Numbered from the stretch's first letter, positions 9,694-63,743 are shown. The stretch: 64,000 nt of DNA from an uncultured SAR86 cluster bacterium (GCA_902523885.1 CABZAV010000003.1:11527-75526); one strand, 5' to 3'. Notes: generated by a model not told the origin, from the sequence alone. Program-made: numbers and translations.

Positions 9694-9808
9694 ATATACG
9701 ACTTAATTTCGTTAAAATTATTAATTCCTCATTTTTTTTTCAAAGCTTAAGTGCTAATCTTTGTAGCCATTCTCAATGATGGGAATGAGGATTTCTTAAG
9801 GAGAGAAA

Positions 9809-47393: not shown

Positions 47394-47400
47394 GTTATTA

Positions 47401-48594: not shown

Positions 48595-48599
48595 AAAAT

Positions 48600-49427
48600 C
48601 TAGTCTTCGTTTTCTTCTTCTCCAAGAGAAATTTTGAGCCTCATAGCCTCAGCTATTGGCTCATCAACCATTTGGCCATCAATCTTAACTGCACCCCCGC
48701 CTGATTTTTGATACTCTTCTAAGACTTTTTTACCTTCAGCAATTTCTTCTGAAGTAGGGGCAAAAGATTCATTAATAAAATCAATTTGATCAGGGTGGAT
48801 GGCTGCTTTGCCTGTAAAGCCTAAATTTTTAACTGCTTCTGCTTCTTTTTTTAATCCTTCTTTATCATCGATATAAAAAAACGGCGCATCGATGGTAAAT
48901 AAATTATACATTGCAGCGGCTAGCACTACTTTTTGTCTAGCATATAACAAAGGCTCCCAAGCAAGCTTGCATCCCAAGCTAGCCGAGGAATCGGCAGCTC
49001 CAAAAAATAATCCAACGACATCTTTGAAAGCAGCGATTTGCGTTACGGTGTCAATTGCTCTTGGGGTTTCGATTAAGGGCACCAATTTATTTGAAAAATC
49101 AATCATTGGAGCTAAGGTTGCTAAGAAATCAAAACTTTGAGTTTTAGGAAGAATTATTGCTTCTATTTGATCTTGATATGGAGAAATGGCATCGATATCT
49201 TCTCTTCCGATGGCATCCATCGCATCATTGACTCTAATAAAAACTGGTTTGGTAAAAGCATTTTCTTTAAGAAGATTGATTAGTTCTTCTCTTGCTAATA
49301 CCTTTTTATCAGCAGGACAACCATCTTCTAAGTCGATAATTAAGGCATCGGCATTGCTGTTTAAGCCACGCTCCAGTCGGTCAAGAGTGTGCCCCGGAAT
49401 GAACAGGTTCGACTTGTATTTACTCAT
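48600..49427 (-). CDS. CitE-like (HpcH/HpaI fold) acyl-CoA lyase
   Basis: Carries 'LFIPG......' and 'DALIIDLEDG' followed by 'GFTGKAAIHP.Q', the citrate lyase beta / malyl-CoA lyase pattern. Confidence 0.8.
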   Translation of the reverse strand: MSKYKSNLFIPGHTLDRLERGLNSNADALIIDLEDGCPADKKVLAREELINLLKENAFTKPVFIRVNDAMDAIGREDIDAISPYQDQIEAIILPKTQSFDFLATLAPMIDFSNKLVPLIETPRAIDTVTQIAAFKDVVGLFFGAADSSASLGCKLAWEPLLYARQKVVLAAAMYNLFTIDAPFFYIDDKEGLKKEAEAVKNLGFTGKAAIHPDQIDFINESFAPTSEEIAEGKKVLEEYQKSGGGAVKIDGQMVDEPIAEAMRLKISLGEEENED

Positions 49428-50060
49428 TTATTGTTTTCTTTCTTTCGCTATTAAAAAATCAACTACATCAAGTAAATCCTTTGTTCCAATCTCGCGATTT
49501 CCAGAAACAGCGTATTTACCATTCACAATGAAAGTTGGGACGCCTTTTATACCGTATTTTTGACCAAAAAGATCGGCTTTTTTAACATTATTTTTCAAAC
49601 CAAAGGAATTTATTAAGCCAACATACTGATCTTCTGAAACTCCATAGGTCTTAATAAAAGGAATAATCTCCTTATCTGAGGCGAGCATTTTTTGTTGAAT
49701 ATGAATGGCAGAGAAAACACCATCAATTATCTCTGGTTTGTTTAGAGCCTCAGCAATAAAAAATAGCTTTCCATGAGTTTCAACCATTTTATTCCAGATG
49801 ACAGGATACCTGTAAAAATCAACTGAACTAGGTAGTTCTTTTTTCCAATCGGTCAGAGAGCCTTCCAAGGTAAAGCAATGGCCACAGCCAAACCAAAAAA
49901 ATTCTATGACTTCGACTTTGGAATTGTCTCTGGTTAAAACTGGCTGCGATAAAACCTCATAATGCCTGCCAGGCTTATACTTATCCGCCGCTTCAGAGCA
50001 CTGAGCGCTTAGAAGAAAAATTAAAGAAAAGGCGAAAAGTTTAGTAAAGACCTGAGACAT
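49428..50060 (-). CDS. dsbA: Thiol:disulfide interchange protein DsbA
   Basis: A signal peptide is followed by 'EFFWFGCGHCF' (the CxxC motif) and 'GVPTFIVNGKY'. Confidence 0.85.
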   Translation of the reverse strand: MSQVFTKLFAFSLIFLLSAQCSEAADKYKPGRHYEVLSQPVLTRDNSKVEVIEFFWFGCGHCFTLEGSLTDWKKELPSSVDFYRYPVIWNKMVETHGKLFFIAEALNKPEIIDGVFSAIHIQQKMLASDKEIIPFIKTYGVSEDQYVGLINSFGLKNNVKKADLFGQKYGIKGVPTFIVNGKYAVSGNREIGTKDLLDVVDFLIAKERKQ

Positions 50061-50733
50061 AATTAGCCACTGCTTGAATTTCTTCTAAAGTAAGTCTGGC
50101 AGCTATTCCTTGCATTGATTTTCCCTTGGTATCGTGTCCTCTGTTGCCATTTTGATAAGCAATAAGAGAAGTAACTACGTATTCAGCCTTTTGACCACCC
50201 AACATTGGATATCCAGCAGACTCTATGCCTTTTCCTTTGGCACCGTGACAACCCGTACAAGCAGGAACGCCTGAATTTATATTTCCTGCCCTGTAAATTT
50301 TTTCCCCAAGCGCTAGATTTTCTTTATCCGCTTGTCCAACCTTCATTTGTTGTGCTGCATAGTAAGCCGCCATATCTCTTAGATCATCGTAATCATATGC
50401 ATCCAATAATCCCATCATCGAAGCAATCACCCTTTCGCCATCCTTTATGTGTTCAAGTTGATCGAACAGATAGCTTTCCCGTTGTCCTGCTAGAGTTGGC
50501 CACTGGCCAACCACACTATTGCCATCTACTCCGTGACAACCGGCACAAACCATAACTTTTCCCTCGCCAGCAATAGGGTCGCCTCTAAGAGGGGCTTTGG
50601 CTACTTTGCTTGCATCAGCTGCTGATGCTGCATGGAATAAGGGCGCTAGAAGTAAAATAAAAGCTGAAAAAATTAATTTTTTTATCATTTTTGTTCTATA
50701 TTGCGGGCTATGCGAGCGTGAATTATATACCAT
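50041..50733 (-). CDS. cc4: Dihaem cytochrome c4
   Basis: It has two haem motifs, 'CAGCHG' and 'CTGCHG'. The signal peptide 'MIKKLIFSAFILLLAPLFHAASA' suggests a probable start at 50688. The cc4-dsbA adjacency next to engB/polA matches Pseudomonas. Confidence 0.85.
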   Translation of the reverse strand: MVYNSRSHSPQYRTKMIKKLIFSAFILLLAPLFHAASAADASKVAKAPLRGDPIAGEGKVMVCAGCHGVDGNSVVGQWPTLAGQRESYLFDQLEHIKDGERVIASMMGLLDAYDYDDLRDMAAYYAAQQMKVGQADKENLALGEKIYRAGNINSGVPACTGCHGAKGKGIESAGYPMLGGQKAEYVVTSLIAYQNGNRGHDTKGKSMQGIAARLTLEEIQAVANYVSGLY

Positions 50734-50754
50734 AGCAATTGAATTTACCCTGTT

Positions 50755-51372
50755 TTGGAGATGAATAGAAAAAGTAGTTATTTGAATATAGAGTTTTTAT
50801 CAGCATGCACTGAAGCCAAGCTCTATCCTAAGGATTTTGGTAGCGAAGTTGCCATTTGTGGCCGCTCAAACTCAGGTAAATCAAGCATTATCAACGCTCT
50901 AGCTAACTCCAAAAAACTAGCGAAAACCTCCAATACCCCAGGTCGAACTCAGTCCATTAATTTCTTCAGCATCAATAGTGACGTTGACTATAAACTCGTT
51001 GACCTGCCAGGTTATGGTTATGCCAAAGCATCAAAAAAAATGCAAAAAGATTGGGGTCGGCAGATTACGAATTACATGAATTCAAGAGAATCTCTTCGCG
51101 GCATTATTTTGATTATGGATATCAGACACCCCTTCCAAAAAGCTGACCAAGATTTTTTAGCTTGGTGCAGGCAATATCATCTCCCAGTTCAGTTACTGCT
51201 GAACAAGGCCGATAAACTATCTCGCAACCAAGGATTGAATATTCTCTCGACGAGCAAAAAAGAATTGATAAATTTAGAGTTGCTCAATGAACCACTATTA
51301 TTTTCTGCTAAGACACATGATGGCGTGGAACAGCTGACAAAGAACATTTTATCTTGGGTGGAATCCGCCTAA
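50755..51372 (+). CDS. engB: Ribosome biogenesis GTPase EngB/YihA
   Basis: Carries 'GRSNSGKSSIINAL', 'DLPGYGYA' and 'NKADK'. Confidence 0.9.
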   Translation: MEMNRKSSYLNIEFLSACTEAKLYPKDFGSEVAICGRSNSGKSSIINALANSKKLAKTSNTPGRTQSINFFSINSDVDYKLVDLPGYGYAKASKKMQKDWGRQITNYMNSRESLRGIILIMDIRHPFQKADQDFLAWCRQYHLPVQLLLNKADKLSRNQGLNILSTSKKELINLELLNEPLLFSAKTHDGVEQLTKNILSWVESA

Positions 51373-51415
51373 GCGCCCATTGACAAAAAAGGAGGAGAGA
51401 GAGTATCAATGGGCT

Positions 51416-51440
51416 CTAAGGAAGAATCCTTAGTTTTCTT
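51416..51440 (+). terminator. Rho-independent terminator after engB
   Basis: The hairpin 'CTAAGGAagaaTCCTTAG' (51416-51433) is followed by 'ttttctt'. A second inverted repeat precedes it, GCCCATTGA (51375-51383) / TCAATGGGC (51406-51414). Confidence 0.55.
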
Positions 51441-51485
51441 AGGAGAAAGTCTTTAGACATAGCTCCTTCGAAAAAAGTTCACTGC

Positions 51486-54227
51486 TTAGTGTGCTTCGCC
51501 CCAATTATCGGCAATGCCGCTCTCAACTTCCAAAGGCACGCTCAGTTTGGCTGCCTTCGACATAATTTCTGAAATTTTTGTTGCCACCGAATCAGCCTCC
51601 TTGGTGGCTACTTCTAAAATAACTTCATCATGCACCTGCAGTATCATTTTTGCTTTTATATTTTCTTTTTCCAACCAATCTTGAATATTAATCATGGCAA
51701 TTTTCATAATATCTGCTGCCGTACCTTGCATCGGCGCGTTAATTGCCGCTCTTTCTGCCGCTTGTCTCGTTCTACCACTATGAATGCCTGGTAAATATAG
51801 CCTGCGTCCAAACAAAGTTTCGACAAAGCCTTTTTCTCGAGCGATTTCTTTGGTTTGTTCCATATACAACTTCACACCAGGATACTTGGCAAAGTAAGAG
51901 TCTATATATTCTTGCGCCATGTTCCTTGGGATCCCCAATGCTTTGCCTAAGCCAAAGGCAGACATGCCATAGATAAGACCAAAGTTTATGGCTTTGGCGC
52001 TGCGTCTATCTTCTTCAGAGGCGCCCTCACCAGGATTACCAAAGACTTCTGCAGCTGTTGCCGAGTGAATGTCTTCACCATTTTGAAATGCATTTATCAT
52101 ACCTTCATCTTTAGAAAGATGAGCCATAATCCTTAATTCAATTTGAGAGTAGTCAATTGATAAAAGTTTTTGTCCTTTGGGCGCCACAAAAGCGTTACGA
52201 ATCATTCGTCCCTCTTCGGTTTTAATAGGAATATTTTGTAAGTTTGGATCTGCTGAAGATAATCTTCCGGTTGTTGTAACAGCTTGTAGATAAGAAGTAT
52301 GTATGCGGCCTGTCTTTGATGAAATCTGCTCCGGCAAACTATCGGTATAAGTATTTTTGAGTTTTGCTAGTGTTCTATGTTCCAACAAAATTTTGGGTAG
52401 TTCATATTCTCTGGCCAGATCTTGCAATACCGATTCATCGGTGGATGGCTGACCGCCAGGCGTTTTCTTCATCACCGGCATGTTCATTTCTTCAAAAAAG
52501 ATTTCTCTTAAATCTTTGGTAGATGCCAAATTGAATTCTTTACCAGCTTCACTAAAAGCTTTTTCTTCCAAACCGCTGATGCGTTGCCCTAAATTATTAG
52601 ATTGAATTCTCAGAACTTCTGGATCGATCAAAGCCCCATTTTGCTCTACCTCTGATAAGACTTTAATCATTGGCAGATCTATTTCAGAAAGCACTTTTTC
52701 TAACTCGGGTTTTTGGGAAAGCTTTTCTTTTAATAATTCGTAACAACGAAAAGTAATGTCGGCATCTTCTGCAGCATAATGGCTGCCACTCTCTAAATTC
52801 ACTTGGTTAAATGTGATTTGTTTGACACCTTTGCCAGCAACTTCTTCATAAGTAGTTGTCTCGTAATTTAAATAAAACTTAGCCATCGCATCTAAATTAT
52901 GTCGAGTTGCCGTTGAATCAAGGACATAGGACATCAACATGCTGTCGCTCCCAATGTTATTTAATTCTAGGCCGTGCTGAGCCAGCACGTTGCGATCAAA
53001 CTTTATATGTTGACCAACCACTGGTACTTTTTCCAATAAAGGTTTTAATTTTTCAATCACCATTTTTTTTGAAAGTTGTTTAGGAGCACCTTCATAGTCG
53101 TGCTGGATTGGAATATATGCTGCTTCGCCAGCTTTGGCTGAAACTGAAATACCAATTAAATTTGCCACAGTAAAATCAAGTCCATCTGTTTCGGTATCAA
53201 GGGCAAGTATTTTTGCTTTGGATAATTTTTTTATCAAAGCATCAAGATCTTTCTCCGTTAAAATGCATTGATATTTCGAATCGACAGCTTTTGGTGGCAC
53301 ATGCTGTTCTGCTAGTGGTGCGACGTATTCTTTTTTTGTTGCTTTGGCTTTATCTTTAGCAGTAGCACTTTTAATAAGAGTTTTAAATTCCAAGTCAGTG
53401 AAAAGCTTGTGTAATTGATCTGTATCTCTTTTACCAACTTTCAAATCATTAATGCCAAAATCCAATTCCACATCTTTTTTTATGGTCGTAAGTTGTTGGG
53501 AGAGTTTCAATTGTTCAATGCCTTCGCGTAAATATTCACCAACCTTGCCTGAAATTTCTTCAGCATTGGCAATGATATTCTCAACAGTTTCATATTTGGT
53601 CAGCCAGTTCACCGCTGTTTTAGGGCCAACTTTTTGAACACCGGGAATATTATCTGAGGTATCGCCAACTAAAGCTAAATAGTCGATGATTTGATTGGGT
53701 TTGACGCCAAATTTCTTCATGACACCCGCTTCATCCAAAACTTCGTTGCTCATGGTATTAACCAAACGAATATTTTTAGTGACTAATTGAGCAAGATCTT
53801 TATCGCCTGTTGAAACCACTGTCTCGATGCCTTGCGCTTCGGCTTGAGTGGCTAGAGTACCGATTACATCGTCGGCCTCGACATTATCAACAACAAAAAT
53901 TTTTAGCCCCAAAGCTTCACAGATGTCATAAATAGGTTGGATTTGTGGACGCAAATCGTCGGGCATAGGTGGCCGGTTGGCTTTGTACTGATCGTACATA
54001 TCGTGTCGAAAGGTACTACCTTTTGCATCAAAGATCATGCCCACTGGGCTGTCAGGATGATCTTCTAAAATTCGCATCACCATAGTGGTGACACCTCTGA
54101 CTGCACCAGTTGGTTGCCCAGTCGAAGTCGAAAGCGGTGGTAAAGCGTGATAAGCGCGATATACATAAGATGAACCATCCACCAAAATGACGGAGTTGTT
54201 ATCTGAAGTGCTTTCTGGTCTGGCCAT
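51486..54227 (-). CDS. polA: DNA polymerase I
   Basis: 913 aa comprising a 5' nuclease, a 3'-5' exonuclease and a polymerase domain with 'DYSQIELRIMAH' and 'LQVHDEV'. Confidence 0.97.
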   Translation of the reverse strand: MARPESTSDNNSVILVDGSSYVYRAYHALPPLSTSTGQPTGAVRGVTTMVMRILEDHPDSPVGMIFDAKGSTFRHDMYDQYKANRPPMPDDLRPQIQPIYDICEALGLKIFVVDNVEADDVIGTLATQAEAQGIETVVSTGDKDLAQLVTKNIRLVNTMSNEVLDEAGVMKKFGVKPNQIIDYLALVGDTSDNIPGVQKVGPKTAVNWLTKYETVENIIANAEEISGKVGEYLREGIEQLKLSQQLTTIKKDVELDFGINDLKVGKRDTDQLHKLFTDLEFKTLIKSATAKDKAKATKKEYVAPLAEQHVPPKAVDSKYQCILTEKDLDALIKKLSKAKILALDTETDGLDFTVANLIGISVSAKAGEAAYIPIQHDYEGAPKQLSKKMVIEKLKPLLEKVPVVGQHIKFDRNVLAQHGLELNNIGSDSMLMSYVLDSTATRHNLDAMAKFYLNYETTTYEEVAGKGVKQITFNQVNLESGSHYAAEDADITFRCYELLKEKLSQKPELEKVLSEIDLPMIKVLSEVEQNGALIDPEVLRIQSNNLGQRISGLEEKAFSEAGKEFNLASTKDLREIFFEEMNMPVMKKTPGGQPSTDESVLQDLAREYELPKILLEHRTLAKLKNTYTDSLPEQISSKTGRIHTSYLQAVTTTGRLSSADPNLQNIPIKTEEGRMIRNAFVAPKGQKLLSIDYSQIELRIMAHLSKDEGMINAFQNGEDIHSATAAEVFGNPGEGASEEDRRSAKAINFGLIYGMSAFGLGKALGIPRNMAQEYIDSYFAKYPGVKLYMEQTKEIAREKGFVETLFGRRLYLPGIHSGRTRQAAERAAINAPMQGTAADIMKIAMINIQDWLEKENIKAKMILQVHDEVILEVATKEADSVATKISEIMSKAAKLSVPLEVESGIADNWGEAH

Positions 54228-54280
54228 GAATACTTTAGTTTAATGGTTAGATATAATTACTGTAAGAGTTTTTTTAAACA

Positions 54281-54745
54281 ATGAGAATCGCCCTAACTTT
54301 GATATTGATTTTTTGTCTGGCCTTACTTGGTACGGCATATTATATGGAATATGCCTTGGGCTTAGAGCCCTGCCCGATGTGCATCATACAAAGAATCGCA
54401 GTTGCTTTAGCTGGCTTAGCAGCTCTCATTGGACTGATTCACAAACAATATCCAAAAGTTTATTTTGGACTCACCGCAGTTTTTAGTGCAGGTGGCGCCG
54501 CCTCTGCCACTAGACATTTATATTTGCAATCTTTACCAGCAGATCAAGTCCCAACTTGTGGGCCAGATCTTGCTTACTTAATTGATAAATCTTATTTTAC
54601 TGATGCTTTAAGCATGCTTTTCATTGGCGATGGTAATTGTGCCGAAGTAATGTGGAGTCTTTTGGGTATTTCTATTCCAGGGTGGGTGCTTATTTGTTGT
54701 GGGCTAGTAATAATCAGCTCTACTGTTGCATACGTTCGTAGCTAA
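54281..54745 (+). CDS. dsbB: Disulfide bond formation protein DsbB
   Basis: Four-TM pattern with 'EPCPMCIIQR' and a second Cys pair ('PTCGPD ... GNCAEV'). Confidence 0.85.
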   Translation: MRIALTLILIFCLALLGTAYYMEYALGLEPCPMCIIQRIAVALAGLAALIGLIHKQYPKVYFGLTAVFSAGGAASATRHLYLQSLPADQVPTCGPDLAYLIDKSYFTDALSMLFIGDGNCAEVMWSLLGISIPGWVLICCGLVIISSTVAYVRS

Positions 54746-54998
54746 CGTTGCCAAAATAATTTTTATCCATTTTTAAAATTTCATTTTTTTTAAAAAATAT
54801 ACGTACATAATATTTTCTAACGACCGAAACTATAGTTAAAACTAAAGTTTGTACAATCGATATGTATAACGCATTGACAATACCCATGGTTAACATCAAA
54901 GCCAAAGTTGTATAAGACAAAAACCAGGCTATTGGCATGGCAATGGCCGTGTCGGTCATGGATTCTTTTAAAGTTTTTCTATCAATTTTTTTCATCAT
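54720..54998 (-). CDS. Hypothetical small membrane protein (92 aa, two predicted TM helices)
   Basis: The hydrophobic segments are 'AIAMPIAWFLSYTTLALMLTMGIV' and 'ALYISIVQTLVLTIVSVV'. It is divergent from the WYL regulator gene, and its 3' end overlaps dsbB by 26 nt. Confidence 0.4.
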   Translation of the reverse strand: MMKKIDRKTLKESMTDTAIAMPIAWFLSYTTLALMLTMGIVNALYISIVQTLVLTIVSVVRKYYVRIFFKKNEILKMDKNYFGNVSYERMQQ

Positions 54999-55032
54999 AC
55001 TTTTGAAAAGGACAAAATTATATTCTCTTGAT

Positions 55033-55049
55033 GCGACAAATTTTGTCGC
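55033..55049. promoter_or_regulatory. Palindromic operator candidate, copy 1 (GCGACAAAtTTTGTCGC)
   Basis: This is a perfect 17-bp palindrome 40 bp upstream of the WYL regulator start. It lies between a -35-like TTGATG (55028-55033) and a -10-like TATAAA (55050-55055). The same core recurs at 61532 and 62988. Confidence 0.5.
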
Positions 55050-55088
55050 TATAAATGATATAATTAATCAGTTAATCGGGGCCTAAGT

Positions 55089-56090
55089 ATGAGTAATCCA
55101 ACTTTAAGACAAATTTCCATGTTGGAATTAATTCCACGGGCTCCTCTTAAAACTTATTCGAGAGAGCTTAAAGAAAAGCTCAGCGAACGCGGCTACGAAG
55201 TTGATGAAAGGACTATTCAGCGGGATCTCGTTTCTTTAGAGAGAGTTTTGCCATTGATTTGTGACGATCGAGATAAACCTTATGGTTGGTCCTGGGCTGA
55301 GACAGGTTTAGGAATTCAAGCGCCTGCCATGGATCCTGTTGAAGCTTTGACGTTGTCACTAGCAGAACAATACCTTGAACCTATAATGCCGAATGCAAGT
55401 TTTAAAAGGATCGGATATTTTTTTAAACGAGCTAATAGCGTCTTGAAGGAAACGAGTCCCAGATTAATTAGTCGTTGGCGCGATCGCGTAAGGGTATTGC
55501 CCGAGATGTTACGTTTTAAGAATCCAATTCTTAATAAATCTGCCGAACAAGCTTTATACAAAGCAACCTTTGAAGGGCTACAAATTAAAGCCCTTTATCG
55601 AAAGCGTGGAGATAATTATTCAAGCTTGAGGCACATTCATCCTCTGGGATTGGTCATGAAAGGCAGCATTAATTACTTAATTTGCATGATGAATGAAGAC
55701 AAAGAGAATCCTCGTTACTTGCCCCTTCACCGCTTTGAACGAGTAGAAATTCTTGATGAAAAAATATGCGAACCGAAAGATTTTGATTTAGATGAATTTA
55801 CCCATGTCAATAACTTAAGTTTTGAATATTCTAAGAAACTTTATACTTTCAAAGCTTTGTTTGACTTTACCGCAGCGGCTCATTTAATGGAAACTCCTCT
55901 TAATGGAACCCAAAAAATTAAAAAGCAGCCAGATGGAAGGTTATTGGTTTCTGCCAGAATGACCGATACGTTGCAATTCGAACAATGGCTAAAAGGATTT
56001 GGTTCAGACGTTGAGATTTTAGCTCCAATAGAACTTAGAGCTAAGTTCAAAAAACTAGCAAAAGACCTGATTAAAAAATATGATGACTAA
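55089..56090 (+). CDS. wHTH-WYL-domain transcriptional regulator (YafY/BrxR/CapW/PafBC-like architecture)
   Basis: The N-terminal wHTH reads 'RQISMLELIP...YSRELKEKLSERGYEVDERTIQRDLVSLE'. The central WYL-type segment reads 'IHPLGLVMKGSINYLICMMNEDKENPRYLPLHRFERVEIL'. The C-terminal extension reads 'FEQWLKGFGSDVEILAPIELR'. 333 aa. Confidence 0.8.
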   Translation: MSNPTLRQISMLELIPRAPLKTYSRELKEKLSERGYEVDERTIQRDLVSLERVLPLICDDRDKPYGWSWAETGLGIQAPAMDPVEALTLSLAEQYLEPIMPNASFKRIGYFFKRANSVLKETSPRLISRWRDRVRVLPEMLRFKNPILNKSAEQALYKATFEGLQIKALYRKRGDNYSSLRHIHPLGLVMKGSINYLICMMNEDKENPRYLPLHRFERVEILDEKICEPKDFDLDEFTHVNNLSFEYSKKLYTFKALFDFTAAAHLMETPLNGTQKIKKQPDGRLLVSARMTDTLQFEQWLKGFGSDVEILAPIELRAKFKKLAKDLIKKYDD

Positions 56091-56097
56091 AGAATAG

Positions 56098-56994
56098 ATG
56101 AGTAATTTCTTAGACCTTTTCATTGTTTTATTATTACTAGGAATTTTTGCCTTTCTGATCTTCCTTTTCTTTAAATTTAGGACTTCGGACGAAAGTTCTT
56201 ATCAATCAAATCAAAATTTTGAGGAAAAAATTGATCTGCTTTCGAATGAAATTTCAGAAATAGAAAGCAAGCTGATTTCGGTAACGACTCCGATTAATGA
56301 ACTCAATAGATTTTTAGGTGGCAACGTTTCAGCTGGTCGTTTGGGCGAATGGAATCTTGAGTCTGTTGTAAAAGACATCATGCCTGATGGTAGTTACGAA
56401 TTTCAAAAGATTATAAATCCGGAAACAACTGAACAAGTAGATTGTGCCGTTTATAGTGCCGACGGACTAATCATTCCAATTGACTCAAAACTTTATTCGG
56501 GACAATTTAAAAATTATCAGGCTACTTCAAAAAAAATCGAACAAGAAAAAATATTGAAAGGCCTCAAAACTGCCATTCTTAAAGATGCCGACGACATTGC
56601 CCAGAAATACATTCGACAAAATACAACCTCGAATTATGCCATTCTTTATATTGCTTCAGAAAAAATGAACGATCTGGTTGATATGATCGAAGATCTACGC
56701 CAAGAATGTCTTTCAGAAAAAAATGTTTTGATTCAAGGACCGAATACCATGGCAGCTTTTTTAGATACAGTTAAAATAGGACATCATTACTTAAATTTAA
56801 ATGAAACTGCTAGTAAGGTCGCTGAAGTGGTCAGAAAAATAAACAAACAATTCAAAGCTTTTGATGAAAGCACTGTCAATGTCAAAAAAAGATTGGAAGC
56901 TTCGGTGAAAGAAGTAGACGAATTACAAACTCGAATTAATGTGCTTGGTAGAGAATTGGACAGAGGAGCTGAAGAAATGGGGAGCGAAAAATAA
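56098..56994 (+). CDS. RmuC-family (PD-(D/E)xK fold) protein, short form with N-terminal TM helix
   Basis: It has the TM helix 'LFIVLLLLGIFAFLIFLFF', a short coiled coil and the RmuC-like core 'AGRLGEWNLESVV...YEFQ...VDCAVYSADGLIIPIDSKL...YAILYIASE...VLIQGPNTMAAFL'. This parallels E. coli RmuC 'RGNWGE.QLE..L......PD.....IDAK....F..MF.P.E...........SPTTL'. It starts 7 nt after the regulator stop. Confidence 0.7.
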   Translation: MSNFLDLFIVLLLLGIFAFLIFLFFKFRTSDESSYQSNQNFEEKIDLLSNEISEIESKLISVTTPINELNRFLGGNVSAGRLGEWNLESVVKDIMPDGSYEFQKIINPETTEQVDCAVYSADGLIIPIDSKLYSGQFKNYQATSKKIEQEKILKGLKTAILKDADDIAQKYIRQNTTSNYAILYIASEKMNDLVDMIEDLRQECLSEKNVLIQGPNTMAAFLDTVKIGHHYLNLNETASKVAEVVRKINKQFKAFDESTVNVKKRLEASVKEVDELQTRINVLGRELDRGAEEMGSEK

Positions 56995-57017
56995 TCTATT
57001 TGATTTTAAAAGTAATT

Positions 57018-58394
57018 TTACGTAAAAAAATTATTTTGAAAATTTAGAACTGATTTATCAAGTTTAATATCTTTTTCAGTAATTTTAGTTTTTAAATATA
57101 AATTTTTCATCTTTTTGCATCTACTCAAGGCAACGTATACCTGGCCATGACTAAATGCTCTTTTTCCATCGCCAATATCTATTGCGCAAGAATTCAGTGT
57201 AAGCCCTTGTGATTTATGAATTGTAACTGCCCAACCTAATCTTATCGGCAATTGAGAATATTCTGCTATTTTCTCTGTAGTTATTTCTTTAGTTTTCTCA
57301 TCAAATTTGTACCTTTCAAGTGTCCATGACTCTCTTTCAAGTTCAAATTCATCACCATCGATTGAAATGTTAATTGAATTATCATTTAGTTTCTTAATTT
57401 CAGCTAAAGTTCCATTTACCCACCTTTTTTCGGTATCATTTTTAGTAATCATGACTTGAGTGCCTACCTTAAGCTCAAGTTCTGAAGGAGCAGGCAAAGA
57501 ACTTTCTTTGTTAAATTTTGTGGGATCACCTTCAGTTGAAGCCTTATAAATTTTTGAATCTGACTCAATTAATTCTATTTTATTTTTATTGATTTCATCC
57601 GCAGTTGCGGTTCTAGCACAGAGATACATTTCGACTGATTCTGGTGGATTAGGCTCATAACAATGTTTGTTTAAAATCTCTACGGTCTCTTTAACATTTT
57701 TTCCAACCCTAATATTGGAAAGAATCTTTAAAAAATTTTCGTCCTCATTCTGTCTATATGATCTCTTAAGCTCTATTGCAATTGGCTTAGAATTTGAAAG
57801 CGACTTAGCACCAAAGAAAAAATGAGAACTATACTTTGAATATATTATCTCTCTATTTTCTTCTGTAGTTACTGGTTCGAGTTGGAACAAATCTCCACAC
57901 AGAAGAAGAGAGGCTCCACCAAAAGGCTTTTTTGAATTTTTGTGAATTTTTAAACTTTCTGATATTGCGTCAAGAGTTGGAGCGTTAACCATAGAAATTT
58001 CATCGATTATTAGCAAATCTATATTCTCAATAATGAGCCCATTAATGTTATTCATCTTATGAACTTTTGGTAATGGCGAAAAATCTAATCTAAAAAGGGA
58101 GTGAATTGTTGTGGCATTAATATTCCACGCTGCCATGCCGGTTGGTGCAACAGTAACTATAGACTTGTCAATTTTATTTCTTACTAGATTAATTAAACTA
58201 GACTTTCCAGTACCGGCAGCTCCCATCAAAAGAATAACCTTTTGGTTTTCCTTAGAAATACTTTCAAGTTCAGATAATAGTTTTCTTGACTCTAAGGTTT
58301 CTTCAAAAGAATATTTGGAGGGATTTTTTTTATTTACCTTTTTATTATTTAATTCTTTTGTAAAACTTCCAAAGGTGTTACTCATTTTTTTCAC
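57018..58394 (-). CDS. Pif1-family SF1B DNA helicase
   Basis: The SF1B motifs are I 'LLMGAAGTGKSS', Ia 'VAPTGMAAWNI', II 'LLIIDEISMV', III 'LLLCGDLFQLEPV', IV 'LKRSYRQ', V 'VMITKND...WVNG' and VI 'AVTIHKSQGLT', then 'YVALSR'. Confidence 0.85.
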   Translation of the reverse strand: MKKMSNTFGSFTKELNNKKVNKKNPSKYSFEETLESRKLLSELESISKENQKVILLMGAAGTGKSSLINLVRNKIDKSIVTVAPTGMAAWNINATTIHSLFRLDFSPLPKVHKMNNINGLIIENIDLLIIDEISMVNAPTLDAISESLKIHKNSKKPFGGASLLLCGDLFQLEPVTTEENREIIYSKYSSHFFFGAKSLSNSKPIAIELKRSYRQNEDENFLKILSNIRVGKNVKETVEILNKHCYEPNPPESVEMYLCARTATADEINKNKIELIESDSKIYKASTEGDPTKFNKESSLPAPSELELKVGTQVMITKNDTEKRWVNGTLAEIKKLNDNSINISIDGDEFELERESWTLERYKFDEKTKEITTEKIAEYSQLPIRLGWAVTIHKSQGLTLNSCAIDIGDGKRAFSHGQVYVALSRCKKMKNLYLKTKITEKDIKLDKSVLNFQNNFFT

Positions 58395-58500
58395 TAATCA
58401 TAATTTTATATTGCGATTATTGTTATTCTTTTGCAAGTTTCAATACCTTTTTATTAAAGAGATAAATAGATTTCTCTATTAAAAGTTGTTATAAAAATTT

Positions 58501-61089
58501 ATGGAACTAATTTTTTTTTTACTAATAATAGTAATAGCTATTTTTGTTTTTAAAAATAACAATTCATTTTCTTTACCTCAAGAAAGTTATAAAAAAACAG
58601 AACCTGAATATATAAAAATAGAAAAAAATAATTTAATAAGATACAAAGAATTTTTTGATAATCTTTTTGAGTATTCGCTCACTCAAGATCAAAGGAAATC
58701 AATAGTTTGTGATGCCGATAGATTGCTTTCAGTTGCTTCTGCTGGATCAGGTAAAACTTCAACCCTCGTAGGTAAGTTTGCTTATCTTGTGAAATCAAAA
58801 AAGGCTAAAGAAAGTGAGATTCTTATTCTCTCTTTTAATAGGTCAGTAAAAGAGGAATTAGAAAAAAGATTGAAACAACTTGGACATAATGATGCAAAAA
58901 TAGAAACATTTCACTCTTTGGGCAGAAAGATTTTAAAATCTGCTAACGAGCCATTTCAAATAGATAAAATGGCTCTTGGAGATGGAGATTCGTTTTTAAC
59001 CTCTTTTCAAGTTAGAAGTCTTATATCAAAAGCAGAAATTAAAAGCCCTTCCATTAGATTCAAGATCGCAGAATTTACTGCTCTTACCCAATACCATTTG
59101 ATTGAAAACTTTGCAGAAGATCAAAATGAATATAATGAAGCGATATCAAGTTATCCATATAAAAGAAATAAATTTAAGTTTAATGATGAATTTAGGCCTT
59201 TGAAAATTCCAGCGCTTGATGGAAAAACTTGGGTGAGATCTCAACAAGAATTATTTATAGCAAATTTACTTGTTCTCAATGGAATAAATTTTAAATATGA
59301 AGCGCCTTTAAGTATTGGGGAGAATGATTCTATAAATCCAGATTTTTATTATCCCGATATAGATCTATGGCACGAGCATTATGCGATAGATGAGAGAGGA
59401 AAATCACCTTTTGGTGAAAAATATGAAGAAAATCATAAGTTGAAAGAAGAATTTTATAAAAGGTCGTCTATAGAAGTATTTTCAACAAATTTAAAGGATT
59501 ATTCAAGTGGAGAAATTGAGCATAAAATCTTTTCTGAATTAGAATCAAATGGATTGCAGAAAAATCCTCTATCTTTATTAGATATTGAATTTAAGTTGAG
59601 TGAAATATACACAGATTCCACTTATAGTTTAATTGCAAATTTAATAGGACTTCACAAAGAAAATAATTCATCAATATCCGAAACACTTTCTAAATTAGAC
59701 TCTTTGCATGACCAAACAAGAGCACAAAAGTTTAAAGAGATTTTTTTTCCTTTGCTTGATGCCTACCAAGAAATATTAGCAAGTAATAGAACTATTGATT
59801 TTTCAGACATGATGACAAAAGCTAATAAAATTATAGAGGGTAATAACAAAAATAATTCAGATCAGACTTCTATTCAAAACTTTAAGTATATTTTGGTAGA
59901 TGAATTTCAAGATATTTCAAAATCTAGGGAAAAGTTAATTAAAAGTATTTTATCATGTAATAAAGAGTCAAAATTGTTTGGTGTAGGTGATGATTGGCAA
60001 TCAATTTATAGATTCACTGGATCTGATATTTCTATAATGACCGATTTTAAAAATCGGTTTAATTTTAAAAAAGATAAAGTCGAAGGAGATTCAAATCAAC
60101 CTCTCTTTGAAATAAAAGAAAGGATTGAGGTAAAGAATATATCTGAAACGCATAGATTTCCAGATTCTATCGTAAAACTTTCTTCGGAGTTTATTCAAAA
60201 AAATCCAAATCAGCTTAAAAAAGAAATAAAAACAGATAAGAAAGGAGGAAGAATTTTTCTATGCAAAATAGAAAAATATAAAACTCAGGATTTAAAGAAT
60301 ATCCTTGATCATATTTCATCGGGAAAAAAAGTTTTTTTGCTCGCAAGAAAAAATCAAGACATAGATAATATTGATTTTGAAGAATTGAAACTTTATAGAC
60401 CTGACTTAGATATAAAATTTTCATCCATTCACAGAGTAAAAGGATCTGAGCGAGATGTAATAATAATTTTAGGAATGGACGGCGGTATGTTTGGCTTCCC
60501 TAGAATTTTTTCTGAAGATCCTTTAATTAGCATATATTTGCCTAAAGAAGACGAATTCAGAGATGCTGAGGAGAGGAGAGTTCTATACGTAGCCATGACA
60601 AGAGGCAGGGAAGACATTTTTTTAGTTTCTGCGCCTGGAAAAGATTATGTATTTTATAACGAACCTTCGGTATTTTATGATGAAATCAAAAGAATCTGTG
60701 AACAAGAGTTTCTGCCTGAAAATAATAAAATTTTTAATGAGTTAGATTTTACAGAGAGTATTCCTTGTAAAGTTTGTGCTAATAAAAAAATTAATCAGAA
60801 AATGAGAATAAAAACTGTCCGTAATACTAAAAAAAATATTGAAAGTGGAATTTTTCCTGGGGTTTTTATGGGTTGTTCAGGATTTTCAAAGAATATAAAA
60901 AGTCCGACTTTCTGCAATCATTCAGAAAGGAAAGCAATATGTATAAATTGTTATTCAAAAGATAAAAAAAATTTATCAGAACTTGAGGTAATTGAAGAAG
61001 ACGAAAATGGAAGAAAAAAATATTTTGTTTTTTGTAGTAATTGTAATTTTAAGAAAGATTATTTTTATTATCAGAAAATTTCAGAATAA
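58501..61089 (+). CDS. UvrD/HelD-like SF1A helicase with N-terminal TM helix, inserted Vsr/PD-(D/E)xK-like module and C-terminal zinc ribbons
   Basis: The TM helix is 'MELIFFLLIIVIAIFVF'. The helicase motifs are 'VASAGSGKTST', 'ETFHSLG', 'ILVDEFQDIS', 'GVGDDWQSIYRFTGSD', 'ETHRF', 'SSIHRVKGSERDVIIILG' and 'EERRVLYVAMTRGRE'. The insertion is 'SQQELFIANLLVLNGINFKYEAPL......INPDFYYPDIDLWHEHYAID' (nt 59230-59400). The C-terminus carries 'CKVC...FMGCSGFSKNIKSPTFCNH' and 'CINC...FCSNCNF' (nt 60766-61060). Confidence 0.8.
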   Translation: MELIFFLLIIVIAIFVFKNNNSFSLPQESYKKTEPEYIKIEKNNLIRYKEFFDNLFEYSLTQDQRKSIVCDADRLLSVASAGSGKTSTLVGKFAYLVKSKKAKESEILILSFNRSVKEELEKRLKQLGHNDAKIETFHSLGRKILKSANEPFQIDKMALGDGDSFLTSFQVRSLISKAEIKSPSIRFKIAEFTALTQYHLIENFAEDQNEYNEAISSYPYKRNKFKFNDEFRPLKIPALDGKTWVRSQQELFIANLLVLNGINFKYEAPLSIGENDSINPDFYYPDIDLWHEHYAIDERGKSPFGEKYEENHKLKEEFYKRSSIEVFSTNLKDYSSGEIEHKIFSELESNGLQKNPLSLLDIEFKLSEIYTDSTYSLIANLIGLHKENNSSISETLSKLDSLHDQTRAQKFKEIFFPLLDAYQEILASNRTIDFSDMMTKANKIIEGNNKNNSDQTSIQNFKYILVDEFQDISKSREKLIKSILSCNKESKLFGVGDDWQSIYRFTGSDISIMTDFKNRFNFKKDKVEGDSNQPLFEIKERIEVKNISETHRFPDSIVKLSSEFIQKNPNQLKKEIKTDKKGGRIFLCKIEKYKTQDLKNILDHISSGKKVFLLARKNQDIDNIDFEELKLYRPDLDIKFSSIHRVKGSERDVIIILGMDGGMFGFPRIFSEDPLISIYLPKEDEFRDAEERRVLYVAMTRGREDIFLVSAPGKDYVFYNEPSVFYDEIKRICEQEFLPENNKIFNELDFTESIPCKVCANKKINQKMRIKTVRNTKKNIESGIFPGVFMGCSGFSKNIKSPTFCNHSERKAICINCYSKDKKNLSELEVIEEDENGRKKYFVFCSNCNFKKDYFYYQKISE

Positions 61090-61427
61090 TCAGCAAAAAA
61101 ACTTAAAATGAAATTAGTAAAAGGCAATCCAAGAAATATAAGACTCAAAAAACCTATTAACAATATCAAAATGCTTTGTAACGTATCCGCGTACATCATA
61201 ACGAGAGTCATTATTGCTGAGCTCGCTAGTATTTGAGGAACAATGGAGTTCATTAAAGAAAAATCCATTTGTTCTGGAATATTTATATTATGACTTGTTT
61301 CAGTTAATGTTGGCTTAACACTATTACTGTATAGCTTTTGTAGAGGAAAAGTAGCTGCATAAGCAGTAGATGCGGTTATGAGCTTTAAACCCGTTTTTAA
61401 AAACTTTCTTCTTTCTGCGTCTATCAT
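61071..61427 (-). CDS. Hypothetical small membrane protein with twin-arginine (Tat) signal-like N-terminus
   Basis: 'MIDAERRKFLKTGLKLITASTAYAA' fits S/T-RRxFLK plus an h-region. Hydrophobic segments lie in the C-terminal half. It overlaps the helicase 3' end convergently by 19 nt. Confidence 0.4.
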   Translation of the reverse strand: MIDAERRKFLKTGLKLITASTAYAATFPLQKLYSNSVKPTLTETSHNINIPEQMDFSLMNSIVPQILASSAIMTLVMMYADTLQSILILLIGFLSLIFLGLPFTNFILSFFADYSEIF

Positions 61428-61531
61428 TTTTTAAGCTTTCTAAGGTTATTATCTTTAAGGCCCTTTAGTAAGGAGTATAAAACTAAAAGGCCTTTAGGAG
61501 AAAATATGAAAAACAACTTTAAAATAAAGAT

Positions 61532-61548
61532 GCGACAAATATTGTCGG
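61532..61548. promoter_or_regulatory. Palindromic operator candidate, copy 2 (GCGACAAataTTGTCGG)
   Basis: It has 6-bp perfect arms CGACAA/TTGTCG with a 3-nt centre. It lies in the gap between the 61554 gene stop and the 61427 gene start, and shares 'gatgcgacaaat' with copy 1. Confidence 0.45.
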
Positions 61549-61553
61549 ATTAA

Positions 61554-61757
61554 TTATTCAAATTTAGCCTCATAGAGTTTTGAATAGCCCATATAACTTC
61601 GTCTTTGTCTTCCAGTGAGGCGTCCATATTCGTCGAAAAAGTAGACCATTGCACCAGTAGGGCCTGTCATTTGAATGTGGAGCTCCCACGTACCATTTTC
61701 AAATTTTATAATGCTCTTGCTGTGATCGATGTCAATTTTTTCTAATAATTCTTTCAT
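61554..61757 (-). CDS. Hypothetical protein (67 aa from MKELLEK...)
   Basis: The track ORF is 61554-61769. The ATG at 61757-61755 forms an ATGA overlap with the TGA stop (61756-61754) of the upstream OGFr-like gene, which suggests translational coupling. I recognise no family. Confidence 0.35.
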   Translation of the reverse strand: MKELLEKIDIDHSKSIIKFENGTWELHIQMTGPTGAMVYFFDEYGRLTGRQRRSYMGYSKLYEAKFE

Positions 61758-62197
61758 GCTTCTTCCCAAAATTTCATTGTGGTTGGATTCAAAATAGTCG
61801 GATCTTTGACTAGTCTTAAAATGGCTTTGTAAAACTCATCTGCAGCTTCATCAGAAACTAAAAGTCTCAAAGATTCAATTACCCGAGTAATGCGCAACTG
61901 ATTGTGATCGTACCCCTTTTGCCAAGCATCGTTTCTACTCAAAAAAGATAGAAACCAAGCAGCCGATTTCTCAAGATTATTTATTACTTTTGGATTGTTT
62001 TTAAGTTTGTCTATTAATGCTTGATTGTTCAAAAATAGTTTATTAAAAGTTGCTTGACTTGGTTTGTTCGTAGGAAAAACTAACTGAACAAAATCATGAG
62101 TGCCTTCAATTTCATTATCTGAATATGCCCAGATTTCTTTTAAGAAACGTCCTTTAAAATCTGGACCTTGATTGGTCAAAAACTTTTCAAAATCCAT
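61754..62197 (-). CDS. Opioid-growth-factor-receptor (OGFr) conserved-region-like protein
   Basis: 'EIEGTHDFVQLVFPTNKPSQ' resembles the 'HDYIQWLFPL.E.S' core of bacterial OGFr_N-like proteins; this is from memory and no HMM was run. The start is set at MDFEKF... (62197), 4 nt after the upstream gene stop, because the longer track ORF would overlap that gene. Confidence 0.5.
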   Translation of the reverse strand: MDFEKFLTNQGPDFKGRFLKEIWAYSDNEIEGTHDFVQLVFPTNKPSQATFNKLFLNNQALIDKLKNNPKVINNLEKSAAWFLSFLSRNDAWQKGYDHNQLRITRVIESLRLLVSDEAADEFYKAILRLVKDPTILNPTTMKFWEEA

Positions 62198-62201
62198 GTC
62201 T

Positions 62202-62876
62202 TTATTTAAGTGAGCCAAGCAGTAGATCATTTTCAAGTTGCCTTTTTTGACACAATTCGACGAAGTCATGCATTGCTTGTTGAAATTCGTTACTTTCGAA
62301 GGTAAGAAGGTTGAAGCCTTCAAAATACAAATAGTATGGACTTTCAGGAGGAATGAATATGGATAGTTTTTTTACTAAAGATTCGTCTTCTTTTATTAAA
62401 TAAGCCCCTTTCTTAATATGAACCAAAAAAATATCAAATAACAAGTCATCGCTTTTTGAATGTTTTTGATAAAAATCCTGGTCTATCATGTTTTCAAATT
62501 TACTTACAAGGCGTATTTCTGAATCAACCCAATATGGTGGTTCGTCGTCAACCTGCATGACCACTCTTGTTTCATTAAGGAGATCTTCTCTTTCTACTAT
62601 GCCTTCGTGTTTTCGGAAACCCGCGGTAAAGATCTGAAAAAAAACTTCAGGTTGATCGCAATTGGGCATACTGAAAGATAAGACTAATTTATTCCAATAG
62701 GAGTGTTGATCGCTAATAGAAATGTATCCGTAGTCACCATCATTCGATTCAGATATTTCCCAGGTGGTACCAATTTCATTCAAGTAAAGGTCGGAATGAT
62801 AAATTTTATAAGTTTGGTCTTGAGCGGACATCGTTATGCCGCTCAAGAAAAATAATAAATAAAAGTTAATCTTCAT
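62202..62876 (-). CDS. Hypothetical secreted protein (224 aa)
   Basis: It has the signal peptide 'MKINFYLLFFLSGITMSAQ'. I recognise no family. It is the first gene of a three-gene minus-strand cluster. Confidence 0.45.
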   Translation of the reverse strand: MKINFYLLFFLSGITMSAQDQTYKIYHSDLYLNEIGTTWEISESNDGDYGYISISDQHSYWNKLVLSFSMPNCDQPEVFFQIFTAGFRKHEGIVEREDLLNETRVVMQVDDEPPYWVDSEIRLVSKFENMIDQDFYQKHSKSDDLLFDIFLVHIKKGAYLIKEDESLVKKLSIFIPPESPYYLYFEGFNLLTFESNEFQQAMHDFVELCQKRQLENDLLLGSLK

Positions 62877-62987
62877 TGAATAATTTCGACCAAAGTATAG
62901 TTCCGTCTAAATCAATTTCTATTTCTTCGTTGGACATATTTCTTAGACACATCAAATTCTCGTGAGTTCTAAGGTTAAGGTTTCAAA

Positions 62988-63004
62988 ACGACAAGCTTTG
63001 TCGT
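62988..63004. promoter_or_regulatory. Palindromic operator candidate, copy 3 (ACGACAAgctTTGTCGT)
   Basis: It has 7-bp perfect arms with a 3-nt centre. It lies in the divergent intergenic region between the 62876(-) and 63038(+) genes, 8 nt upstream of a TATAAA (63013-63018). Confidence 0.45.
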
Positions 63005-63037: not shown

Positions 63038-63340
63038 ATGAATAATCCTGAAATAGACAAAAAATTAAGTGGCGCGATAGATGAAGTGATTTCAATTTAT
63101 TTAGAATCAACCGATGTTGAGGTTATCGATCTTTTTAGGAGTTTAACGAGGCATGTCATATCATTAAATTACCAATATGCCTCTAATTATCGCTCTGCGA
63201 CTGCCATGATTGCACAATGTCTCAATGACGTTATGTGCGACCTACAAGAGCAAAAGATCTTTAATGACGAGTTCAAAGACAACTTAAAGAAAGGCAAAGT
63301 TACATCTGTTTTGGAAGATCATTTAAAAAAGAAGCACTAA
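63038..63340 (+). CDS. Hypothetical protein (100 aa)
   Basis: ORF with the SD-like 'ggagaaaag' just upstream of the ATG. I recognise no family. Confidence 0.4.
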   Translation: MNNPEIDKKLSGAIDEVISIYLESTDVEVIDLFRSLTRHVISLNYQYASNYRSATAMIAQCLNDVMCDLQEQKIFNDEFKDNLKKGKVTSVLEDHLKKKH

Positions 63341-63344
63341 AAAT

Positions 63345-63743
63345 TTGAAAAAGATAAAAGCAAAAAAATTTTTTCCTTACCCTTCTCAAGAAAGTTTCGA
63401 TGATGCCTTAAATATTATTGCTGAAATAAGAGCAGAAAATTACTTTTGGACAAAAAAAATTTGGTATGTTGAACAGAAAATTAAAAAATTTGCTAACGAC
63501 GATATCAATCGTGAATTTTATGTTCGGTTAAGGGATAAGTTAGACGAAAAAATTTGTAATAGTCATACTATTTATATTGATTTGTTAATGGATATTACAA
63601 AAGTAACTGGCATAAAAAAGAAAATTACAAAAAAATTTGTTCAAATGACCGATGAGCTAATTTTGCAAGACAGAAGATCTAATGATTATTTTAATATTAA
63701 AAATCAACCTTTTCCTTTTGAAGATGAATTAAACTATCGTTAA
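63345..63743 (+). CDS. Hypothetical protein (132 aa, TTG start per track)
   Basis: The ORF starts 4 nt after the previous stop. The first in-frame ATG is far downstream, so a non-ATG start is required if the gene is real. A strong terminator follows it. Confidence 0.35.
   Translation: MKKIKAKKFFPYPSQESFDDALNIIAEIRAENYFWTKKIWYVEQKIKKFANDDINREFYVRLRDKLDEKICNSHTIYIDLLMDITKVTGIKKKITKKFVQMTDELILQDRRSNDYFNIKNQPFPFEDELNYR

Follow-up and report, generated by a model that had tools for sequence, protein, structure and literature searches.

Three copies of one short palindrome lie between genes in the 55-63 kb part of a 64,000-nt stretch of DNA from an uncultured SAR86 cluster bacterium (GCA_902523885.1, CABZAV010000003.1:11527-75526; the whole 64,000 nt are hereafter called the window), and the first of them adjoins a gene for a WYL-domain regulator. 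The locus raises the question of whether these palindromes are operators and, if so, which protein reads them and with what effect on the flanking genes. The answer arrived at here, and held with good confidence, is that all three palindromes are operator boxes and that a homodimer of the WYL regulator from 55089-56090 would bind them; this protein would be a SAR86 representative of the DriD/DdaA group of activators that sense single-stranded DNA (ssDNA). SAR86 bacteria are among the most abundant uncultured marine bacteria and are not yet routinely grown. A search of one collection of papers found nothing that links SAR86 to WYL regulators or that describes the control of DNA damage in SAR86.

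The box in the window and in orthologous SAR86 loci

Coordinates are those of the window, and its list of open reading frames (ORFs) was used for assigning sites to coding or intergenic DNA. A search of the 64 kb with CGACAANNNTTGTCG returned exactly three matches (boxes 1 to 3, Table 1), where the expected count is 0.00 and none of 100 dinucleotide-preserving shuffles contained a match. Boxes 1 and 2 also have the flank GATGCGACAAAT in common. An earlier note on this DNA had described three exact palindromes with these letters and this shared flank, had seen no other copy with the same spacing and had placed none of them in coding DNA; pattern search together with reading of the sequence confirmed the first statement, the exact search of the 64 kb the second, and the ORF list, by which 3/3 exact copies are intergenic, the third. 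The exact relaxed core CGACANNNNNTGTCG and the looser pattern CGACNNNNNNNGTCG find the same three sites only in the window, and with up to one mismatch CGACANNNNNTGTCG gains a single further match, which lies within polA. A mismatch-tolerant scan, one of the checks suggested in the earlier note, was run on the window with up to two mismatches in CGACAANNNTTGTCG and adds just three matches, all within long ORFs.

Fourteen orthologous SAR86 loci (regulator identity 54-89%), mostly from single-cell genomes or metagenome-assembled genomes, were obtained from a genome-collection scan; each comprises ~20 kb around the WYL gene, and 320 kb of SAR86 sequence were compared in all. Their genes were called crudely and the proteins then clustered into families, denoted here by F numbers. 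The palindrome lies just upstream of the WYL gene, or, in the more distant subclade, of the small F26 gene preceding it, in 14/14 loci and likewise in L135 and L136. The flanks of the box have diverged across the loci, and its invariant part is CGACA-N5-TGTCG; of the 6+6 core proposed earlier this part stands, the sixth A and the tenth T being merely preferred in the 14 orthologous loci.

Exact CGAC-N7-GTCG occurs 26 times in the 320 kb, whereas simulations with a first-order Markov model average 0.5 occurrences and never exceed 3. The 172 kb of conserved genes on the left side of the regulator contain none of these boxes; 15 are within 500 nt upstream of WYL, and the remaining 11 are spread over the 141 kb to the right (WYL, RmuC and a variable island), at distances of 4.5-10.4 kb from the start of WYL. 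Although coding sequence makes up ~90% of the DNA, at least 23/26 boxes are intergenic, and the other three lie in doubtful short ORFs. Both phylogenetic footprinting and a comparison of intergenic with coding DNA, which had been suggested along with the mismatch scan, thus gave positive results. Across the 52 box flanks (26 boxes with two sides each), GTCG is present in 52/52 and a preceding T in 48/52; the half-site logo reads w-T-t-T-G-T-C-G-c and the box is symmetric. Since the sequence of the half-site is invariant while the spacer varies, readout by a protein, and not pairing in RNA, is indicated.

The boxes of the island also have counterparts elsewhere. An orthologue of box 3 is found in L004 at 14557 within the same gene order (F35, box, F36-F37), and box 2 corresponds to the box that heads an F11-F28-F27-F20 operon in L007, L010, L013 and L014; the 'GTCGcat' side of box 2 faces the F20 gene, and the same side faces the operon in the other genomes, L008 (F11/F27...F20) included. 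Island boxes recur in this manner before the same gene families in different genomes. Together with the footprint in the 14 loci, the orthologous copies of boxes 2 and 3 support the dimeric operator of a small local regulon that had been put forward from the window.

Promoter geometry and the WYL protein

When the 52 flanks were aligned on the box end, 35/52 had TANNNT at offset 11 (25 flanks) or offset 10 (10 flanks), and the count for every other offset was between 0 and 7. All 15 loci have a -10-like hexamer on the WYL side, and 13/15 have one on the opposite side, the exceptions, L010 and L012, being the two without a divergent gene. Most boxes are flanked by a -10 on each side, so that a single box can serve a divergent pair of promoters, and box 1 is proposed, from the sequence, as an operator common to such a pair, with predicted transcription of WYL-RmuC to the right and of the DUF7220 gene to the left. 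The box spans roughly -37 to -23 and thus occupies the -35 position; no -35 hexamer is present, and the distal half-site GACA, 20-21 bp from the -10, would be too far away to serve as one. Since a sigma-70 consensus scan demands a -35 hexamer, the promoters at the boxes are missing from its output. The earlier view that a shared operator ties unrelated-looking genes together holds for the box itself and is corrected to a shared promoter architecture, in which the box stands at the -35 position with a -10 hexamer 10-11 nt away. Such fixed phasing would fit an activator that contacts RNA polymerase, and a repressor needs none.

The WYL protein of the window has ~330 amino acids, and no identical record was returned by an exact look-up. 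Pfam assigns WYL to residues 154-221 and WCX to 252-327. The best phmmer matches in the PDB are DriD entries (E about 5e-9, over the WYL-WCX part), followed by PafC, and BrxR and CapW are absent from the matches at E up to 1. The AlphaFold2 model (mean predicted local distance difference test score, pLDDT, 70.5; weak linker) consists of three N-terminal helices with a beta wing, further helices and a beta-rich C-terminal part; the N-terminus forms a winged helix, of which helix 40-51 is the third helix. Foldseek with this model ranks DriD (8tp8) first with a full-length alignment (E 2.6e-15), then PafBC (5e-12), with CapW at 4.6e-8 and BrxR at 9e-7. Of the families named in the earlier note as models for the regulator, the DriD type is retained on structure and box, BrxR/CapW are dropped on their lower Foldseek rank and for want of a phmmer match, and PafBC is dropped in view of the single gene and the palindrome. 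The WYL protein as the binder is likewise supported as a prediction from sequence, the box being that of DriD and DdaA and the closest solved relative being DriD.

Residues that would contact DNA or ssDNA were examined in an alignment of 148 sequences, comprising 146 representatives of 50%-identity clusters, the window protein and L109; the family as a whole has 990 such representatives at E up to 1e-30. R41 and R45, in the segment ERTIQRDL of helix 40-51, are invariant in 18 SAR86 sequences and are present in 146/148 and 148/148 family members, respectively. They are equated with R37/R41 of DriD, R47/R51 of DdaA and R46/R50 of PafB by spacing and helix position and not by alignment, since the N-terminal domain has no significant match through which the DNA-reading residues could be aligned directly to DriD. 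Y170 (146/148) and Y196 (141/148), the latter within an NYL motif as in DriD, fit Y173/Y200 of DdaA by spacing. R209 is found in 81/148, and the phmmer alignment pairs NYL with NYL and R209 with R204 of DriD, which with Y192 contacts ssDNA in that protein. K202 and W206 of DriD correspond to N207 and L211 in the SAR86 protein, in which position 212 is Pro. Column 212 of the 148 sequences holds Ala in 93, Val in 21, Pro in 15 and Arg in none; this position, the first of two arginine positions of the beta4 strand and the beta4/beta5 loop, is Arg in DriD and Ala in DdaA, and it would put the protein nearer to the DdaA cluster.

Binding by the 55089-56090 protein, an ssDNA trigger and activation in preference to repression are what we infer for this locus. 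In the proposed mechanism, ssDNA arising from DNA damage, phage attack or DNA uptake would bind the WYL-WCX part, upon which the two winged-helix domains would read the two GTCG half-sites via R41 and R45. With the box at the -35 position, 10-11 bp from the -10, the bound dimer would recruit housekeeping RNA polymerase to the -35-less promoters, and activation may be one-sided or go in both directions from the box. Predicted targets in the window would be, for box 1, WYL-RmuC and the DUF7220 gene; for box 2, the 118-aa membrane gene; and for box 3, the operon at 63038-63743.

Genes around the boxes, the variable island and other taxa

The regulator belongs to a conserved syntenic block that runs DsbA, cytochrome c4, EngB, PolA, DsbB, small divergent gene, box, WYL, RmuC. 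The RmuC gene is probably in one operon with the WYL gene; the two genes are adjacent in the window, in L135/L136 and in 10/14 orthologous loci, with RmuC directly after WYL, and in L004 and L009 one gene intervenes. Family F9 is kept at the DUF7220 position in L001-L005, L011 and L014. The region beyond RmuC differs from genome to genome among the SAR86 loci. Metagenome contig L135 is 94% identical to window 47399-56975, and the identity stops at the RmuC stop codon (window 56975-57000; L135 8046-8065), after which L135 has a Dnd-like, phosphorothioation-type set (PAPS reductase, SMC-like, SNF2 helicase and PIF1) and the window has PIF1 and UvrD-like genes. Since the identity ends there and other genes follow, the 57-64 kb part of the window, of which the guanine-plus-cytosine (GC) content is 28-33%, is regarded as a strain-variable island; the WYL-RmuC pair at its edge is core.

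Table 1. Positions of the boxes, the associated -10 elements and the adjoining genes in the window
Feature	Position	Strand	Remarks
Box 1, CGACAAATTTTGTCG	55034..55048		Exact match; between DUF7220 gene (-) and WYL gene (+)
Box 2, CGACAAATATTGTCG	61533..61547		Exact match; 105 nt upstream of 118-aa membrane gene (-)
Box 3, CGACAAGCTTTGTCG	62989..63003		Exact match; between 62202-62876 (-) and 63038-63340 (+)
-10 TATAAT for WYL-RmuC operon	55059..55064	+	10 nt after box 1 end; TG-A precedes
-10 TATAAT for divergent DUF7220 gene	55017..55022	-	11 nt from other end of box 1
-10-like TAAAGT, weak	61516..61521	-	11 nt from box 2, toward 61427; 4/6 matches
-10 TATAAA	63013..63018	+	9 nt after box 3; kept in L004
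WYL regulator	55089..56090	+	Winged helix-turn-helix (wHTH), helical linker, WYL, WCX; proposed binder of boxes
RmuC-family gene	56098..56994	+	Pfam RmuC 5e-40; 8 nt after WYL stop
DUF7220 92-aa two-helix membrane protein, family F9	54720..54998	-	Pfam DUF7220; divergent from box 1
118-aa membrane protein, Tat-like N-terminus, family F20	61071..61427	-	ORF list
Two small genes, 100 aa and 132 aa	63038..63743	+	ORF list; first ORF 63038-63340

Neither the 118-aa F20 protein nor the 100-aa and 132-aa proteins encoded after box 3 have a Pfam match, and the same applies to most box-target families in the SAR86 loci. Homologues of F20 form the distal end of box-headed operons in L007, L010 and L014, and the 118-aa gene is the probable, predicted target of box 2. 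In both L004 and metagenome contig L019 a box precedes an F37 homologue, and the two-gene operon at 63038-63743 is the probable, predicted target of box 3. The PIF1 and UvrD-like helicase genes are not predicted targets, because no box was found in their shared intergenic region. PADLOC recognised no defined defence system in 54.7-63.7 kb, where its matches were generic ones to helicases and WYL. Several genes of the SAR86 island regions have domains of DNA metabolism. In L006 an SNase-type nuclease gene directly follows a box, and genes nearby encode a large helicase-nuclease, a PD-(D/E)XK nuclease and a PNKP-type phosphatase or give a weak UDG-like match, below the Pfam threshold.

Several further features were observed close to these genes. 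A 15-codon ORF (MKNNFKIKMRQILSD; window 61496-61553, + strand) runs through box 2 on the strand opposite the F20 gene, with AGGAG 5 nt upstream, and is probably there by chance. In the 105-nt leader between box 2 and the 118-aa gene, a hairpin with a 13-bp stem (GGCCCTTTAG...CTAAAGGCC; window 61451-61504) has an RNA fold z-score of -3.3 and only a sub-threshold chance match in Rfam; an attenuator, a processing site and an insertion scar are the candidate explanations. The OGFr-like ORF at 61754-62323 (-) and the 224-aa signal-peptide gene at 62202-62876 (-) overlap by 122 nt; the TTG start of the former is probably too far upstream and an internal ATG the likelier true start. In the more distant SAR86 subclade (L006, L007, L008, L009, L011, L013 and L014), a gene for a protein of 65-67 aa with the motif GGDPEVF is located between the box and WYL, at ~9800-10000 or the equivalent site. 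In L006 its stop overlaps the WYL start (ATGA), and the arrangement suggests a three-gene operon of small protein, WYL and RmuC in this subclade.

The box was also searched for beyond SAR86. A scan of metagenome contigs for the box followed by N10-11 and TATAAT matched at least 120 contigs. Among the 120 matching contigs listed, 24, from several taxa, carry an ORF that matches the SAR86 WYL profile, and in 19/24 of these no more than about 120 nt separate the box from that ORF. Across the box from it the genes are diverse, and their products include a DnaQ-like exonuclease, a Sir2-like protein and a phosphoesterase.

Three observations from these scans concern the genes and contigs on which the box occurs. 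The divergent partner of the regulator differs widely between taxa; a gene for a DnaQ-like 3'-5' exonuclease is driven from the box in L029 (box at 247) and in L106 (box at 2171), and in the latter, from a genome of ~37% GC, it is divergent from the WYL gene. In 12 contigs of Haemophilus parainfluenzae type (L016, L033, L057, L076, L083, L107, L110, L113, L116, L122, L123 and L127), the box and -10 precede a 66-aa FtsK-gamma-like gene. The box is about 71-85 nt upstream of this gene, its product consists of an FtsK-gamma-like winged helix only, and a WYL gene is 3.3-4.2 kb away in the four contigs that are long enough; the 66-aa protein is a candidate for a damage-induced factor in division or chromosome segregation. 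A scan of viral contigs for the box with a -10 gave 25 matches, none with a WYL gene. The viral contigs L144, L152, L154 and L155 (IMG/VR), together with L059, have an identical intergenic site CGACACATCCTGTCG with a -10 (GC 0.33) and no WYL gene on the contig; these sites may be phage promoters listening to a DdaA-like regulator of the host, or a coincidence.

Alternative readings and known systems

Several of the observations count against the assignment of the boxes to an ssDNA-sensing activator. The box 2 promoter, with its weak -10, is the weakest of the three in the window, and the overlap of the box with the core promoter is compatible with repression also. The pLDDT of the model is only moderate and its template modelling (TM) score is about 0.26, owing to an uncertain arrangement of the domains; the N-terminal 151 residues gave only insignificant wHTH-like phmmer matches in the PDB and no significant match to DriD. 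With Pro212 in the SAR86 protein, the sensing of ssDNA could differ. Activation of the WYL-RmuC side is uncertain by analogy, since DriD leaves its own promoter unactivated. No recA, ssb, uvrA or lexA gene was found in the SAR86 sequences compared (the window and the WYL-locus regions); the tblastn queries were E. coli RecA, LexA and SSB, and the single match was to SSB on L082, an unrelated metagenome contig.

The same protein and boxes might instead form a repressor system like BrxR/CapW, in which the binding of ssDNA releases the island promoters. The boxes cover -37 to -23 and could occlude RNA polymerase, and the WYL-side promoter of box 1 might need no activator, since a TG stands two bases ahead of its perfect TATAAT. 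The hypervariable island after RmuC holds helicase and nuclease genes, a 94%-identical strain has a Dnd-like system, and WYL repressors are typical of variable defence-type islands of this kind (PMC9122601, PMC11662680). We nevertheless consider repression unlikely: structure and sequence both place the protein nearer to DriD and PafBC, which are activators, than to CapW and BrxR, the box is that of the activators DriD and DdaA, and the strict 10-11 nt phasing on both sides and the absence of -35 elements are traits of activator-dependent promoters.

It is very improbable that another transcription factor, encoded elsewhere, binds the boxes and that the adjacency of the WYL gene is incidental. 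The inspection covered only about 20 kb around each WYL gene, which leaves room for such a factor, but the box is upstream of the WYL operon in 15/15 SAR86 loci with 54-97% protein identity, the same box with its -10 adjoins unrelated HTH-WYL genes in other taxa, and it is the experimentally proven site of two WYL proteins, DriD and DdaA. A structural or recombinational role, as hairpins, terminators or junctions of island cassettes, would draw on the 6-7 bp hairpin that each copy can form, on a consensus scan that lists copy 2 as terminator-like and on the position of boxes 2 and 3 in a region that varies between strains. However, all three copies stand before gene starts and not after gene ends, box 1 is in the conserved, syntenic part of the locus, and Rfam returns nothing significant. 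Copies 1 and 3 have no following T-run, the stem sequence is invariant and not co-varying, and the break point between strains is the RmuC stop and not a box; on all these grounds the terminator or hairpin and the cassette-junction readings were rejected, and a role of this kind is improbable in the extreme.

Publications on Caulobacter, Moraxellaceae and mycobacteria already describe the box, the family to which the regulator belongs and the promoter rule; what is new is the SAR86 lineage, the clear two-sided promoter arrangement and the occurrence of box-bearing cassettes in a strain-variable island. Read as an activator system, the SAR86 locus would represent a concrete regulon, with one regulator, a 15-bp box, a defined promoter geometry and few targets, mostly of unknown function. 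It would extend the DriD/DdaA/PafBC rule (GTCG about 11 bp from the -10 and no -35) to another lineage and provide a clean case of one box for two divergent promoters. A more tentative idea, possible though rather doubtful, is that a DdaA/DriD-like regulator acts in both directions from one symmetric box, the -10 elements being equally spaced on both sides, and that the box with its -10s is a portable promoter module of the island cassettes. If this were true, mobile cassettes (F11-F28-F27-F20, F36-F37, the SNase nuclease and others) would bring their own box and be wired to the ssDNA alarm of the host, and the island would be a damage- or infection-inducible toolbox. Should LexA be absent, DNA-damage control in the SAR86 clade would have the WYL protein as its master switch.

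Among the known systems, BrxR and CapW share with the SAR86 regulator the wHTH-WYL-WCX organisation, an inverted repeat in the promoter and a location at the edge of a variable defence-type island (PMC9122601, PMC11662680), and CapW of this group senses ssDNA. They differ in being repressors dedicated to one defence system, such as BREX or CBASS, whereas the SAR86 regulator is a syntenic core gene (polA-dsbB-DUF7220 | WYL-RmuC), and in their Foldseek E-values, 1e-7 to 1e-4 against 1e-15 for DriD. PafBC is an ssDNA-triggered WYL activator of promoters without a -35, in which two arginines read G bases (PMC8635444, PMC11804915). Its motif is tGTCgg-N10-tANNNT (PMC8635444), so that the GTCG element is 11 nt from TANNNT, the same spacing as in SAR86. 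However, PafBC is a heterodimer of two paralogues with a non-palindromic half-site and does not bind DNA without RNA polymerase, whereas SAR86 has one WYL gene and a full symmetric palindrome.

DriD of Caulobacter is the closest solved structure and has in common with the SAR86 system a CGAC-N7-GTCG box with an AT-rich spacer and the NYL variant of the WYL motif (PMC9186387, PMC10853764, PMC13004042). Its box is ATACGAC-N7-GTCGTAT, it was crystallised on ATACGACAGTTACTGTCGTAT, and 68/69 alphaproteobacterial DriD homologues have the motif in their own promoter (PMC10853764). As in SAR86, the box and the -35 position overlap, the spacing to the -10 is constant, and the regulator and a divergent gene of unknown function have a bidirectional promoter with a box between them; the DriD sites belong to -35-less promoters, of which one is bidirectional (PMC13004042). 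Sequence identity reaches only about 19-22%, with an N-terminal domain that cannot be aligned by sequence; DriD also differs in the Arg at the beta4 position and in the ATA/TAT flanks of its box. Caulobacter DriD activates the divergent operon only and not its own promoter (PMC13004042), and this one-sided activation contrasts with the -10 hexamers placed equally on both sides in SAR86.

DdaA of Acinetobacter and other Moraxellaceae, like the SAR86 protein, is a single-gene wHTH-WYL-WCX regulator of Gammaproteobacteria with two recognition-helix arginines (Ellison et al. 2026, PMC13010146; Song et al. 2025, PMC12392091). Its tyrosines Y173/Y200, to which Y170/Y196 of the SAR86 protein would correspond, are needed for the response to ssDNA and damage. 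The motif, CGWCA-N5-TGWCG, is the same, and the site bound by DdaA at aciT, CGACAATATGTGTCG, differs from copy 2 of the window in the spacer only (PMC13010146, PMC12392091). DdaA has Ala where the SAR86 protein has Pro, and no published description was found of a dual -10 on both sides of one DdaA box. After DNA damage it activates recA, ssb, uvrA, CRISPR-Cas and restriction-modification genes (PMC13010146, PMC12392091). The Acinetobacter regulon is thus genome-wide (recA, ssb, uvrA and others), whereas a local regulon is seen in SAR86, where the WYL-locus regions were compared. According to Song et al. (2025, PMC12392091), DdaA homologues of Haemophilus and of other phyla also bind this motif, and outside the Moraxellaceae they appear to regulate ddaA-adjacent genes of unknown function (PMC12392091). 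With its local genes beside the regulator, the SAR86 locus looks, by analogy, like this state outside the Moraxellaceae.

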